A stretch of DNA of 63,943 nt, filler included, from Dimargaris cristalligena (taxonomy: Eukaryota), in assembly GCA_003614675.1 (NCBI GenBank). It is 4 parts of 4 records of this genome, joined end to end, with 100 filler letters (N's around TTAATTAATTAA, not from the genome) between each part and the next. Parts side by side here need not be neighbours in the genome. Positions count along the whole stretch, not along the records: positions 16,816 to 33,456 come from ML002838.1; positions 33,557 to 50,155 come from ML002839.1; 2 more parts are not named here. The stretch is one strand, 5' to 3'. Below are positions 18,375-48,220 of this stretch, in pieces. The notes below the pieces were generated by a model that was not told where the DNA came from, searched no databases, and was given only the letters and a program-made list of their open reading frames with translations. The translations under genes were made by a program, and so were the position numbers. Within the stretch, counting starts at the first letter, position 1. Every line of letters starts with the position of its first letter.

Positions 18375-18599
18375 TCATTTATCGTGACCCAGTGCTTGTT
18401 TCCCTTTACTAATACCCTTTTTAATAAATTTCTTAGTCGAGGCAGCAGCGGCTTTAAAAGGCAATTTCACCAAATTTTTGGCCATCTGGTAGGGGTCACC
18501 CACAGCGGTTATCGTACGTTTGCACAATGTTGGAGCCGCCAAGACCTGGTTGCCACCAACAGCAATAAGGAGAAAAGCAATGATTATAGACTTATTCAT
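18375..18599 (-). CDS. Secreted prepro-peptide, 74 aa: signal peptide, KR, 46-aa Lys/Ala-rich cationic peptide
   Basis: MNKSIIIAFLLIAVGGNQVLA-APTLCKR-TITAVGDPYQMAKNLVKLPFKAAAASTKKFIKKGISKGKQALGHDK. Start context ACAATG. Confidence 0.75.
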   Translation of the reverse strand: MNKSIIIAFLLIAVGGNQVLAAPTLCKRTITAVGDPYQMAKNLVKLPFKAAAASTKKFIKKGISKGKQALGHDK

Positions 18600-19641
18600 T
18601 GTAGTAATGGCGAGACGAGAGGGTGATTGCCGAAATGGTGGAGTGATAGTGACAAAAGGCTGGAGTGGAAGATATATGGCGAGAGTGAAGATGTAAATGT
18701 ATGTACGTTGTTGGGTGGAGAACGGGGGAGGGGGGGTTGGCTGGTTAGTAGGGTTGATGAACAAAATGCGACAACTAGTTAATGTAAACTTTGGTTAACT
18801 GAAATGCATGGGGTTAAATTTAGAAATGGTAAACTGGAAATAAGTGGGGAGGATATCAATGAGCCTAATGAGATAATTGACGCTGTAACGATAAGATTAT
18901 TAGGAGGAAAATGCAGTTGGTTTTAAATACCTAAGCGATTCGGGAAACCAGTCACCTAGACTAGCGTAGAAATAGGAAATAGTGAGGGGCCCGGGTCTTG
19001 GCTGGAATAGCTTTCCCGAAGCATTTCTACTTCTACTGCACATCGTTCGCAAATAAGGGGGCTTGGCATGTAGGGTGGATAGGTGGGGGGGGGGGCTCCA
19101 GTATAGTGCGGGGCTTGAATTGATTGTCATGGTTTTAATTTAATGTGCTGATATAAACTTAAATTGGGCCACATCAAAGGTATACTAGGATTGTGGTTTT
19201 TATCAATTTTAAGGAAGATGAAGAGAGGAGGAGGAGTAAGAAGGAGTACACTTAAATATTAGGCAAAGCGCGCGGGGAGGGTAATAGATTGCCCAGGGGA
19301 ACCCAGATCGATACTGTATACATCTCTCGATGGTTTTGATCAAGAGTGCTGCCTTCCTCCCGTTTGCTTGCTGGATTGTTTCGTTGGACTGGGTATGTAG
19401 GTGGAGCAACGGGAAGATATTTATTACATTTACACTGCCCTTGGCTAAAGCCTCCCAGCACCCTGTTGCCCAACAGCGGATTTCTTCCGACTGGTCGACT
19501 AGTGATGCCCACCCACACCCCCCATTTCCCTCTCCCGCTGTCTGTTGGGTTAGACGGCCTCAGTTTACATTGGGCCCATCAGCCCTTTTGACATGTGTAC
19601 CACTAGGTCCAAATCCCGATGTTTTTCCGCGCTGATTGATA

Positions 19642-19779
19642 TGGGTGAAATTCAAACCAGCTGTATAAGGTTTTACATAATACATGTAAGGGTGAATATA
19701 TCTGAGAATAGATTTTAACCAGTAATATTGGCCTCATCCAATGGACTTTTCGTTATACAGCCTGAATGAACTTCTCCCA
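19642..19779 (-). mobile_element. ~138-bp MITE, full copy
   Basis: Imperfect ~27-bp TIRs (TGGGTGAAATTCAAACCAGCTGTATAA / TTATACAGCCTGAATGAACTTCTCCCA) with TA on both sides. Similar to other copies in the window. Confidence 0.75.
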
Positions 19780-20637
19780 TATAGATCCGTATGGGTGATA
19801 TTCGACCTTATTTGAATCTGACATCCATACGGGTAAGTGTTTAGCTAGGCTGTAGTACATAACGAACAATCCGTTGGATGAGGCTGTTAACAGCACACTC
19901 AATCAACAATAGAGTGGGTGTAGCAAACCAGCACATGAGGAGTGGATTTATTTCTTTGTCAGCTATTTTCCAAACCTAGAGCTCCCTCTGGTTCCAGAAG
20001 GCACCTTCCTTTAGCATTTCCTATACAATAATACATCATTTATATTCCTATTCCCTTTGACCCGCATTGGCATGTAATAAGGCAAATAGTACAGGTTAAA
20101 CATGCGTCTCCCGCCTATTCCTCCATACACGTATTGTTTAAAACATACCACTGGTCCGAATTTCGCCCTAATTATATTTTCGGCGCCTAATTCCAGCAGT
20201 CTGTGATGACTATACTAAACATATTGATAGTCCAACCAATTGGTGCCTGAAATGCATTGGAGATAGAGCGCTGCATATGAGAAGAACACACACATTCCTC
20301 TACTTCTGTACCACGTAACTCCCTTTATCGTCGTCCCATCTTTCTTTTTTCTTTACCGTGGTAACTAAGCTCGAAATAACAGTGTGCCGGATTCGCGGTG
20401 GCAATTCATTTCTTCATAGATTCTACGTTTATCGATTCCCTTTCTTCAATTTTTTAAGGGACATTGCCCCAGTCACCGTTGAGCAATGCACATGGCCTTG
20501 GTCAACTGAACTCTTCGTCGATCTAAGTGCCGTAGCCCTCTCTTAAGGAGTCGTCCCCTTCAATTAGATAGTCGCATTTCGGCTCTCCTTTATTTTCCCT
20601 TCTCCAATTAGCTTACATACCAGTCCTACTGCCACCC

Positions 20638-45950: not shown

Positions 45951-46091
45951 TGGGAGTAGTTCAACAAGGCTGTATAACGAAACATCTCTATTTGATGAGG
46001 CAAATCCTGCTGGCTGAAAATTAACATCCCACTGATTTTCCCATACAACATATCAGTTAAAACCTTATACAGCCAAGCTGAATTTCACCCC
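45951..46091 (+). mobile_element. MITE, near-full copy
   Basis: TGGGAGTAGTTCAACAAGGCTGTATAACGAA...TTATACAGCCAAGCTGAATTTCACCC. Confidence 0.75.
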
Positions 46092-47992
46092 TACCAAACA
46101 ATGCCAAATATTATATATACACTCCATACTCGGCTGGGCTTCTGGGGACGTATGTATGATATATCATTAGCCCCTGCCCCCTCCTAAAGGTTTCTAATCA
46201 CTGTTCAAACAATTGTACCTTAACCTAATGAAGCCCCATATACAGGCATATTGGCAATCAGAGAGCCACCGTGGCTCCGTTAGAGTCCGTTATAACCGGG
46301 TGTGGAACTAAGCAAACATTGCTGAGGGAGGGGGGGAGCTCAGAATTTGGCAATATGGGGAAGATAATTAAAATTCCGGCTTGCCGCTAATTTGCCTTTT
46401 TAGTACCGGGATAAAAGGCCGTATACAAGGCTTGGTTCCATCCACAATAGAGTCGCCCAAACAATCCCAAATAGCAATAGTAAGCGAACATCAGTTATAC
46501 TAGCAGCATGGGTCCTCTTTGACCAAGTGGCACCATGTAAGTAGTATTGAGTTGATCACATGCATCCGCATTCTTAAACCCTCAACACCAGCTTAGACTA
46601 CTTCTGACCTCGGTATATATAAATATATATATTTCAGCATCGCCGAGTTCGATCCCCTGCACTTTCTCAATCTCGCTTCCCTTTAAGACATCTAAAGTTA
46701 CTCAATGGTGGTAGTTCCATAGTTGGTGAGCAGAATAGGAGCTTATGGGGCGATATAGCACCAGTATACCTCATTGTCAAAACTATTTATATCGGGTGGT
46801 TAGTGAAGAGAGAGGGGTACGTAAATCTAGAACTCAGGGTATCGGGGGGTGCTGCTGGATGGATGATTCCCCAGGACAATCATGTTATTTTGCTAGATTC
46901 GATTCATTAAATACCGCCGCCATTAATTCCCTCCAGCCAGTCGACTCGGCCTGGCTCGGCTTTCACACCCCTACTACTGCTGCCAGCTGCCCTTGGTCGG
47001 TCAATGATAGATGTTCAACTGATTCGTGGATGGGAGGGGGGACTTGGAACGTCAGTATGTGAATCTTCCGCCATAAGGCCAGCTGTCCAGCGTAAATAAC
47101 CACCCCTTCCGGGTTATCTTCACTGGATTTTCAATGGCAGAAGGCTCTTTCAAGCTGCCATGGGTCATCCGAGCGGTAGAGAGAAACGAGAATAGAAGAG
47201 TCTTTGGTAAATGAATGGGCTTACTGGAGCGATATACATGTCACGTGGTTAGGTCCACTTGCCCGCGCCTTTTAGGGACCAGTGGTTGAACCCTCCCACC
47301 CTGTCTCCATTTCTCAATTTACAATGGATTGCTGCTGCTGATGACCACCGCGGTAACTATACTTGTCATTTATTTTTGAGTCTTTTCCGGCGACCTGCTG
47401 CCTTCTCCGATCATCTTTTTTTGACTCAACTCCTTGACTGCCATTATTTTCCTTTACTCCGCAAATTCCTCCACCCCCTCCTTTGTTTAGATAACCGCCT
47501 TTTACCTGCACCAATAAATACGCCGTACCGTATGGACTTTAGATAACCCAGTATTTCGACCCAGTGTATGCTTCCCCACCCCTTTTTTATCACCAATCCG
47601 ACCCTCCAAAGCAGCCCTCCGCGTTTCACAGATATTTAGTGTTTATTCTAAACGAAGACAGTCGTACTAATAAATCGGATGTAATGATAATGTATGTAGT
47701 AAATGTAATCTTGGGGATCTGGAGTGCTGTTCAGAGCTCCAGCCAACCCCCAAATAAAAAAAGGGAGAAAAAAATGCAGCGACAGCACCAGTAAACACTC
47801 CCCATATGAAGTCCCAAGGGAAGTCGAGGGGGATAGGCGATGGAAGCCTGGTTTGGCAAGTGCCAAGGTCTACAAAAATGATTTGGCTTTAGAATGGTGG
47901 TAGTAGATGAAAGGAAGGGTAAGCCGTATGGCAGTGGTGGGGAGGGAAAGCCGCAATATAAAATCGCTGTATACTCCCTCCACCATGCCTAT

Positions 47993-48220
47993 TTACGTGG
48001 TCTTCTTTGATCTCAGCTTGTTAAACAGCATTTTTCCGCCCTTGAATATGGCAGGGCCCGCCATTAAAGCGAGATTGAGAAAGCGTCTCTCAATATGTAG
48101 AGGTGTGGTGGACTGGTCGCCACTTAACTGAGAAGACAGCGGGGCGGCCAGGCCAGTGCCGGAAAGTCCGCAGGCGGCCACACAGACACATAGAGCAATC
48201 GAACGAAAGGGCAGTAGCAT
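47993..48220 (-). CDS. Secreted prepro-peptide, 75 aa: signal peptide, pro region, RR, 29-aa cationic amphipathic peptide
   Basis: MLLPFRSIALCVCVAACGLSGTGLA-APLSSQLSGDQSTTPLHIERR-FLNLALMAGPAIFKGGKMLFNKLRSKKTT. TATAAATA near 48429-48436. Confidence 0.8.
   Translation of the reverse strand: MLLPFRSIALCVCVAACGLSGTGLAAPLSSQLSGDQSTTPLHIERRFLNLALMAGPAIFKGGKMLFNKLRSKKTT

Follow-up and report, generated by a model that had tools for sequence, protein, structure and literature searches.

Three short open reading frames with a common precursor layout

The DNA analysed here is a stretch of 63,943 nucleotides from the genome of Dimargaris cristalligena (GenBank assembly GCA_003614675.1), which we refer to at its full length as the window, and our subject is a set of short genes and candidate genes within it for secreted peptides that would be cut out of a larger precursor. 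The species belongs to the Dimargaritales, an order of haustorial mycoparasites. An earlier note on this DNA had proposed three such prepropeptide genes, and we found all three open reading frames (ORFs) exactly where it had placed them, on the minus strand, running from ATG to stop and with the described order of signal, A↓(A/H)P junction, pro-piece, KR or RR, and tail to the stop. We call them ORF1 (74 residues), ORF2 (64 residues) and ORF3 (75 residues) (Table 1). Our reading, to which we give a probability of roughly 0.6, is that ORF2 is a real, intronless gene of a multi-copy family so far seen only in Dimargaritales, and that ORF1 and ORF3 are candidates only.

Each ORF begins with a hydrophobic N-terminus, at the end of which the predicted cut (marked by an arrow) falls within LA↓AP in ORF1, QA↓HP in ORF2 and LA↓AP in ORF3, the four residues around the cut being identical in ORF1 and ORF3. 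One KR or RR follows in each ORF, at residues 27-28 (ORF1), 34-35 (ORF2) and 45-46 (ORF3), leaving tails of 46, 29 and 29 residues up to the stop with net charges of +8, -3 and +6, respectively; the tail of ORF2 carries two Cys and four Trp. The three ORFs had been described as unrelated to one another, and this agrees with what we found. ORF1 and ORF3 gave no BLASTP alignment with each other, and a hidden Markov model (HMM) of the ORF2 family, run against the six-frame translation of the window, matched ORF2 alone (E = 8.5e-37), the next best frame not falling below E = 0.16; therefore, ORF1 and ORF3 stand outside the ORF2 family. None of the three ORFs matched a Pfam family at E <= 0.01.

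The window consists of at least four separate pieces joined by linkers of 44 N, TTAATTAATTAA and 44 N, which act as six-frame-stop spacers (Table 1), and a further gap of 72 N lies at 898-969. The piece sizes drop slightly, from 16641 to 16599 bases (the latter at 33557-50155), as if the contigs had been sorted by size. ORF2 and ORF3 share a contig, and ORF1 sits on a different one. Since a linker stands between ORF1 and the other two, their linkage is not shown, and since the pieces are joined contigs, synteny readings across the linkers are invalid; the statement that three genes occur within 30 kb therefore says nothing about the genome. A possible fourth start at 16856 comprises 13 codons ending at a linker, that is, at a contig end, and only about five of its residues are hydrophobic.

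Table 1. Positions of the ORFs, the parts of ORF2 and the associated features in the window
Feature	Positions	Strand	Basis
ORF1, 74-residue candidate prepropeptide (signal-like start, LA↓AP, LCKR, +8 tail)	18375..18599	-	ORF, layout heuristic
ORF2, 64-residue prepropeptide gene	39057..39251 (stop 39057-39059)	-	ORF, annotated hypothetical protein, paralogues, codon score
ORF2 predicted signal peptide, residues 1-22, QA before HP	39186..39251	-	heuristic, AF2 helix, A22 invariant in 12/12
ORF2 pro-piece, residues 23-35, ending in LSKR (residues 32-35)	39147..39185	-	R35 and Q36 invariant in 12/12
ORF2 predicted mature peptide, residues 36-64	39060..39146	-	most conserved region, 29 residues
TATA-like motif upstream of ORF2, 141 nt before its ATG	39386..39392	-	motif scan
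ORF3, 75-residue candidate prepropeptide (signal-like start, LA↓AP, IERR, +6 tail)	47993..48220	-	ORF, layout heuristic
Short high-copy repeat resembling a MITE, one copy	17894..17998	.	self-BLASTN; copy at 19636-19786 inverted
Linker, N-run/TTAATTAATTAA/N-run	16716..16815 (same kind at 33457-33556 and 50156-50255)	.	sequence inspection

ORF2 belongs to a multi-copy family of the Dimargaritales

ORF2 is represented by gene models in three D. cristalligena annotations, where it is called a hypothetical protein. RKP35560.1 from D. cristalligena is identical to ORF2 over the 64 residues they share, other proteins of the species are 86-89% identical to it, and two clusters formed at 90% contain six sequences from the three annotations, which amount to four variants differing mainly in the signal core. 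A profile search against 1.84 billion representatives returned 14 matches at E <= 1e-3. Nine of them are short: D. cristalligena accounts for seven and Dispira parvispora for two (IWQ62_001327 and IWQ62_003132), and no credible relative was found among these representatives outside the two species. The five long matches (leucine-rich repeat, Big_2 and others) were discarded as unrelated proteins. The family as it now stands is one of small proteins (56-66 residues) and comprises ten distinct sequences of D. cristalligena plus two of Dispira parvispora, with eight gene models in the H4R33 annotation and five in the BJ085DRAFT annotation. In the libraries searched so far, the family is restricted to Dimargaritales. 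A multi-copy, order-specific family of predicted secreted prepropeptides, dispersed over many contigs, exists in two genera of these mycoparasites.

At the DNA level, we aligned Logan contigs from four runs, at a likeness of at least 80%, to positions 33557-50155, the piece that carries ORF2 and ORF3, and worked from the resulting tables of differences only. Extra contigs pile up on ORF2 only, 5-9 of them carrying another letter at 39093 across the four runs. The paralogous matches stop at 39056 and 39256, which are the borders of the coding sequence; the match of one 776-base contig is limited to 39078-39252, and the window's own copy is interrupted inside ORF2 in the contigs of all four runs. 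Among the matches listed, eight of the nine differences in ORF2 are synonymous changes at third positions (codons 30, 40, 42, 44, 47, 49, 51 and 53), the ninth being G28D in the pro-piece, and the single deletion in the paralogues removes 3 bases at 39199 and stays in frame. ORF2 is under purifying selection. Its codon score ranked third among 92 short intergenic ORFs outside the training genes, after two exon-like ORFs, and the context of its start is ACCACCATGG. As background for the TATA-like motif upstream of ORF2, a motif of this type precedes 21 of 120 short ORFs at a distance of 30-300 nt.

Gene callers had been said to miss ORFs of this kind. This does not apply to ORF2, which was modelled in all three annotations, and it may still apply to ORF1 and ORF3. 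Four of the five BJ085DRAFT models of the family begin upstream of the conserved Met, with unrelated N-terminal extensions of 10-61 residues, and their signal would therefore be hidden from secretome pipelines. The public 74-residue model of ORF2 starts 10 residues upstream of this Met; by our reading of the sequence, such an extension would need an intron spanning the TATA-like motif. The unrelated extensions of the other family models are 39-61 residues long. The conserved MV(S/A)(L/I)R is the likelier true start of the family. One model, BJ085DRAFT_28188 (P0008), agrees with the family up to residue 44, beyond which come 69 residues unrelated to it, so that the copy would have a frameshift or the model would be mis-spliced.

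Searches of the literature on Dimargaris cristalligena, on Dimargaritales peptides and on small secreted proteins of Zoopagomycota gave no paper with a description of the family in its title or in the opening part of its abstract. In the available portion of PMC6784888 there are zero occurrences of "secreted" and "transcriptom", and in that of PMC9866270 small secreted proteins are mentioned only through the citing of other work.

Predicted processing and the mature peptide

Across an alignment of the 12 family sequences, the invariant residues are M1, A22, R35, Q36, G39 and G40, with W61 being almost invariant. The four residues P4 to P1 in front of the R↓Q junction are LSKR in five sequences, and LVKR, LPKR, MSKR, VARR, LVER, VAPR and LDPR in the others. 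Position P4 is thus occupied by Leu (nine sequences), Val (two) or Met (one), and P2 by Lys (eight), Arg (one), Glu (one) or Pro (two), while P1 is always Arg. The extended Kex2 motif, as given in the available text of PMC8528282, has Arg at P1, tolerates K, R, P or E at P2 and has an aliphatic residue at P4, and the cleavage context of the family fits it. The invariant R↓Q together with the Kex2-type LxxR context therefore implies the release of a 29-residue peptide rich in Gly and Trp.

In ORF2, this mature part starts with Gln and combines a Gly/Asp-rich linker and two NG(S/T) sequons with a Trp-rich tail; Gly makes up 31% of the mature part and Trp 14%, and three Trp lie between C55 and C64, the latter being the final residue. 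Seven of the ten full-length members have the C-x8-C tail, and two variants end in Pro-Cys, with no final Trp. Pairs of the seven members with both Cys are on average 67% identical over the mature part, against 54% over the signal and 55% over the pro-piece. AlphaFold2 (AF2) placed a signal helix at residues 3-21 of ORF2, with a predicted local distance difference test score (pLDDT) of 82-84. A profile search of the PDB with the family aligned only a signal-like stretch to the N-terminus of SHV-1 beta-lactamase (E = 0.15), and this match was rejected.

We propose that processing would run as follows. Signal peptidase would cut after the invariant Ala22, and a Kex2-like convertase of the secretory pathway would then cut after the invariant Arg35, in the LxxR context that reads LSKR in ORF2, so that a 29-residue anionic, Gly/Trp-rich peptide starting at Gln36 would be secreted. 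Its N-terminal Gln may cyclise to pyroglutamate, and in most of the D. cristalligena copies the two Cys of the C-x8-C tail may close a Trp-rich loop.

Several points weigh against our reading of ORF2 and its product. The signal-peptide calls come from our own crude heuristic and an AF2 helix, not from a trained predictor, and AF2 gave no confident structure for ORF2 beyond the signal (pLDDT 44-55). The count of eight synonymous differences in nine is a sample among the matches listed, with 178 further rows for the whole stretch. In the available portion of PMC9866270, the D. cristalligena genome is suggested to be non-haploid; therefore, some of the "paralogues" may be alleles, and the number of loci is somewhat uncertain. 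In the 12-sequence alignment, Glu occupies P2 in one member and Asp occupies P3 in one, and Asp at P3 is called unfavourable for Kex2 in the available text of PMC8528282. Finally, one D. cristalligena member and both Dispira members have Gly/Trp tails free of Cys; since the two Cys are missing from these three members, a disulfide loop is not family-wide.

As the mature part is the most conserved one and the differences among paralogues are mainly synonymous, our reading is that the peptide would act on a target that is conserved. We favour binding to a conserved partner, which could belong to the host fungus or to the parasite. The classic pattern of venoms and antimicrobial peptides is the opposite of a conserved product with a drifting prepro-region. 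With its conserved product, its drifting prepro-region and its negative net charge, the ORF2 family is therefore unlikely to encode a lytic toxin, and the label "venom-like" in the earlier note sits poorly with a family whose mature peptide is anionic and is its most conserved part. We infer from the sequences that the peptide may serve in signalling or at the host interface rather than as a membrane-lytic, fast-diversifying toxin.

A conserved mature peptide would also fit recognition by a receptor, and the family could on that account encode alpha-type pheromone-like peptides for autocrine or mating signalling, not directed at a host. A secretory precursor with a predicted Kex2 site is what such a peptide would have, and the tail with its two Cys, a Trp before the first of them and a Pro-Cys end in two variants points the same way. 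We nevertheless hold this to be improbable, since the precursors contain no repeats and no STE13 signature, Arg35 being followed by Q-M, Q-L or Q-I; since about 15-19 linker residues, among which there is no second cleavage site, lie between the Kex2 site and the Cys/Trp motif; since the Dispira members have no Cys; and since one assembly holds eight gene models of differing sequence. Very unlikely, in our view, is that the family encodes precursors of peptides that are made on the ribosome and then altered post-translationally (RiPPs), with the Trp/Cys tail as a core modified by tailoring enzymes. The tail is indeed rich in Trp and Cys, strictly C-terminal and conserved, and class 1 Kex2 substrates include RiPP precursors according to the available text of PMC8528282. 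However, no recognisable tailoring-enzyme gene lies beside ORF2 (the ORFs at 34198-34917 and 37442-38479 have no Pfam match, and that at 43536-44390 encodes a MARVEL domain), there is a single core with no repeats, and the Cys are not family-wide.

ORF1 and ORF3 as candidate genes

We compared the shared layout with chance expectation by two rules that were post hoc, being drawn up after the ORFs had been seen, and that were applied to a single 64-kb window. The signal rule called for a 9-residue uncharged hydrophobic core with a mean Kyte-Doolittle value of at least 2.0, an N-end that is not acidic, and small residues in positions -3 and -1; the full layout combined this rule with a KR or RR located 4-30 residues past the predicted cut and at least 15 residues beyond it. 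The signal rule selects exactly ORF1, ORF2 and ORF3 among the 125 ATG ORFs of 50-100 residues, and all three have the full layout, while the additional picks at looser settings are clearly spurious and come from a known exon or from real genes read in another frame. The null model consisted of 200 dinucleotide-preserving shuffles in 2-kb blocks. Against it, the full layout is enriched, with three cases observed against 0.45 expected: none of the 200 shuffles reached three, 15 reached at least two and 75 at least one. Over 24 combinations of thresholds, the real count was 2-5 against shuffle means of 0.15-2.31, and it was reached by 0-52 of the 200 shuffles. On a more independent criterion, the motif A(A/H)P follows the hydrophobic core in all three real signal-like ORFs, compared with six of 826 shuffled ones. 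These statistics make real signal peptides in ORF1 and ORF3 likelier without settling the matter.

Other results count against the two ORFs as genes. Signal-like ORFs of 50-100 residues as such are not enriched (three observed against a shuffle mean of 2.83), and the expected excess over shuffled sequence thus appears in the full layout only, where it depends on the thresholds; with ORF2 set aside, the real count minus one was reached by 1-117 of the 200 shuffles, again depending on thresholds. Neither ORF had a match, not even to a D. cristalligena gene model, among the proteins of 40-132 residues in a collection of 5.8 billion clusters. Their codon z values, 0.8 for ORF1 (rank 17 of 92) and 1.25 for ORF3 (rank 11 of 92), do not separate them from non-coding ORFs, and the best 18-residue helical moment of their tails, 0.48, was matched by 10% of residue shuffles. 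The count of three genes is accordingly borne out for ORF2, with its annotation and its multi-copy family, and has no independent evidence for the other two.

In metagenome contigs, 602 stretches matched the pattern of ORF1 and 596 that of ORF3, and none was confirmed by tblastn. In contrast to the pile-up on ORF2, no extra contigs were found on ORF3 in the four runs at a likeness of at least 80%. The single difference in ORF3, seen in the independent-sample run X5, is synonymous. No TATA-like motif was found upstream of ORF1, and ORF3 has two, 216 and 71 nt upstream. An AF2 model of ORF3, built from the single sequence and of low confidence, has a helix at residues 42-73 (pLDDT 61-72). In the Atlas, the clusters nearest to ORF3 are precursors of frog antimicrobial peptides, with scores of 0.75-0.80 that lie within the range reached by shuffled proteins, and those nearest to ORF1 are unnamed clusters with a score of 0.79; both results are too low to mean anything.

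It may be, then, that ORF2 is the sole gene and that ORF1 and ORF3 are frames left open by chance in repeat-bearing intergenic DNA, with hydrophobic starts that are a coincidence, an explanation whose probability we place somewhat short of even. The shuffles produce signal-like ORFs at nearly the observed rate and at least one full layout in more than a third of cases, the protein and metagenome searches gave no homologue, the codon ranks are middling, and neither ORF has been modelled in the annotations represented in the protein collection; ORF1, moreover, has no TATA-like motif and sits between two inverted copies of a repeat described below. What chance accounts for less readily is that both ORFs have their KR or RR at a sensible distance with an aliphatic P4 (LCKR in ORF1 and IERR in ORF3), that they share LAAP when A(A/H)P is so rare in shuffles, that two or more full layouts arise in so few shuffles, and that ORF3 has upstream TATA-like motifs and a synonymous single difference. 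On balance, for each of ORF1 and ORF3 taken by itself, we lean mildly against its being a real stand-alone gene.

We also considered that ORF1, ORF3 or both have real signal peptides that are the first exons, or the decayed relics, of genes for larger secreted proteins. The genome does contain introns, the one we inspected, in a GDP-mannose pyrophosphorylase-like gene, having a GTAAGT donor after 24061. At the end of ORF3 (region 47993-48000, minus strand), the stop lies inside a donor-like GTAAAT, one base off that donor, and the open frame beyond this GTAAAT is of low complexity and has no known relative. We think this origin quite unlikely, as no protein-like open frame follows either ORF on the same strand within 1.5-1.9 kb and no homologue is known that could anchor further exons.

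The broadest proposal is that all three ORFs are expressed and belong to a venom-like arsenal, spread over the genome, of toxic peptides that are unrelated to one another, processed by Kex2 and directed against the host. In its support, the only signal-like ORFs of 50-100 residues in the window are these three, every one with the full layout and A(A/H)P, and the layout exceeds its expectation as given above; the tails of ORF1 and ORF3 are cationic, the frog antimicrobial-peptide clusters nearest to ORF3 in the Atlas offer a lead only, and D. cristalligena is handled as an obligate mycoparasite in the available portion of PMC6784888, in agreement with the parasitic lifestyle that had been suggested. 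We judge the proposal unlikely, however. ORF1 and ORF3 have neither homologue nor gene model, the statistics are post hoc and threshold-dependent, the physical clustering comes from contigs having been joined, and the sole verified family is anionic with a conserved mature peptide, the reverse of the pattern of venoms and antimicrobial peptides.

Repeats and neighbouring genes

Self-BLASTN revealed five copies of a repeat of about 100-150 bp in the window, at 17894-17998, 19636-19786, 45944-46100, 50067-50155 and 51588-51735, with 74-89% identity. The summed contig depth runs into the thousands at 45745-46298 and 49623-50155, the depth of the repeat is 100-300 times that of its flanks, and many contig joints link the copies. 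It is probably a very abundant element of the type of a miniature inverted-repeat transposable element (MITE) or a short interspersed nuclear element (SINE). Two inverted copies bracket the 1.9-kb segment that holds ORF1, and ORF3 lies about 1.9 kb from copies on both sides, whereas ORF2 is 5-7 kb from the nearest one. A MITE-rich setting for all three ORFs, as the earlier note had it, is thus borne out in part. A second repeat region of high depth, up to about 12000-20000, occupies the start of the third piece (33557-34150), and an inverted match of 56-59 bp to it lies beyond the linker, at 33117-33174. At 44504-44653, just upstream of the MARVEL-domain gene, a 150-base stretch is skipped by the contigs of all four runs and was flagged as a skipped repeat.

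The long ORFs of the window contain fungal domains recognised by Pfam, namely, an MRS2-like Mg transporter, a GDP-mannose-pyrophosphorylase-like nucleotidyl transferase, a RING finger, a Zn2Cys6 cluster and a MARVEL domain. Three long ORFs on the plus strand, 31226-32491 (421 residues), 34198-34917 (239 residues) and 37442-38479 (345 residues), match no Pfam family at E <= 0.01 and may encode lineage-specific proteins.

Possible significance for host interaction

Dimargaris and its relatives live as obligate parasites of other fungi. As a multi-copy family confined to one order, whose tiny, predicted secreted peptides share a conserved convertase site, the ORF2 family offers a tangible candidate for the molecular interface with the host, and secretome surveys based on the BJ085DRAFT annotation would have missed most of its members, their signals being buried. 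Part of the finding has precedents: the proteins of the ORF2 family are already public as "hypothetical protein", and their processing logic is that of Kex2-processed small secreted peptides of fungi. Lineage-specific small secreted proteins are, moreover, common in zygomycete fungi, and the family will therefore cause a specialist little surprise. The finding stops short of showing a venom-like arsenal.

A bolder picture, which we consider a rather long shot, is that the Dimargaritales possess a peptide toolkit unique among known fungal groups, in which a Kex2-released Gly/Trp family would act on or inside the host hypha and would be joined by independently evolved, cationic, melittin-like peptides of the ORF1 and ORF3 kind that annotations have missed. 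If this were true, the GW/WG-rich tails might, for example, serve as a haustorial recognition signal or mimic protein-binding motifs of the GW type.

Comparison with known systems

Among the closest parallels in processing are the Kex2-processed pro-domain (K2PP) effectors of plant-pathogenic fungi, which, in the available text of Outram et al. 2021 (PMC8528282), have a signal, then a short and probably disordered pro-piece ending in KR, RR or LxxR, and then the product. ORF2 has both the N-terminal signal peptide (by the heuristic and AF2) and the Kex2 motif at the end of the pro-domain, and the invariant P1 Arg of its family, with Leu or Val at P4 and K, R, P or E at P2, fits the extended motif of that text (PMC8528282). 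The products differ: a K2PP effector is a folded protein, whereas the predicted peptide of ORF2 is 29 residues long, 31% Gly and has no predicted fold (pLDDT 44-55). The host is a plant there and a fungus here, and the processing of ORF2 is predicted from its sequence.

Kex2-processed repeat proteins (KEPs) and alpha-factor-type precursors, as presented in the available text of Le Marquer et al. 2019 (PMC6339444), are likewise secreted precursors from which a Kex2 cut frees a small peptide, as is predicted for ORF2. The tail of the family, with its two Cys, its Trp and the Pro-Cys end of two variants, brings to mind the alpha-type pheromones with two Cys and the QSWGGCGGRGTPCW peptide of that source (PMC6339444), which we take as a lead and not as membership. 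The KEP pipeline demands at least three repeats separated by KR, RR or KK (available text of PMC6339444), whereas ORF1, ORF2 and ORF3 have one KR or RR each and the members of the ORF2 family one site and one core. The STE13 signature (XA/XP) and the repeated units of alpha-type pheromone precursors are both missing from the 12 family sequences.

ORF1 and ORF3 resemble the precursors of cationic toxins and antimicrobial peptides, such as frog bombinin, brevinin and dermaseptin, in layout only: a signal is followed by a pro-piece, a dibasic site and, up to the stop, 29-46 residues of cationic tail. Melittin- and candidalysin-type peptides are further comparators among cationic peptide toxins. 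The two ORFs differ from such precursors in that they have no sequence homology to them, match no Pfam family such as FSAP_sig_propep or Bombinin (E <= 0.01) and are candidate genes. By the helical-moment test, the amphipathicity of their tails is not significant.

The lineage-specific small secreted proteins of zygomycetes treated by Chang et al. 2022 (PMC9391592) differ in that the main text of that paper, as far as available, has zero occurrences of Dimargaris and describes no similar family or processing motif. They are similar to the ORF2 family in being small and secreted, in matching no Pfam family and in being shared by ecologically similar close relatives (available text of PMC9391592). 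The family itself can be recognised by a profile consisting of the MV(S/A)(L/I)R start, R↓Q-x-x-G-G and a Gly/Trp tail, which ORF1 and ORF3 do not match and ORF2 does.

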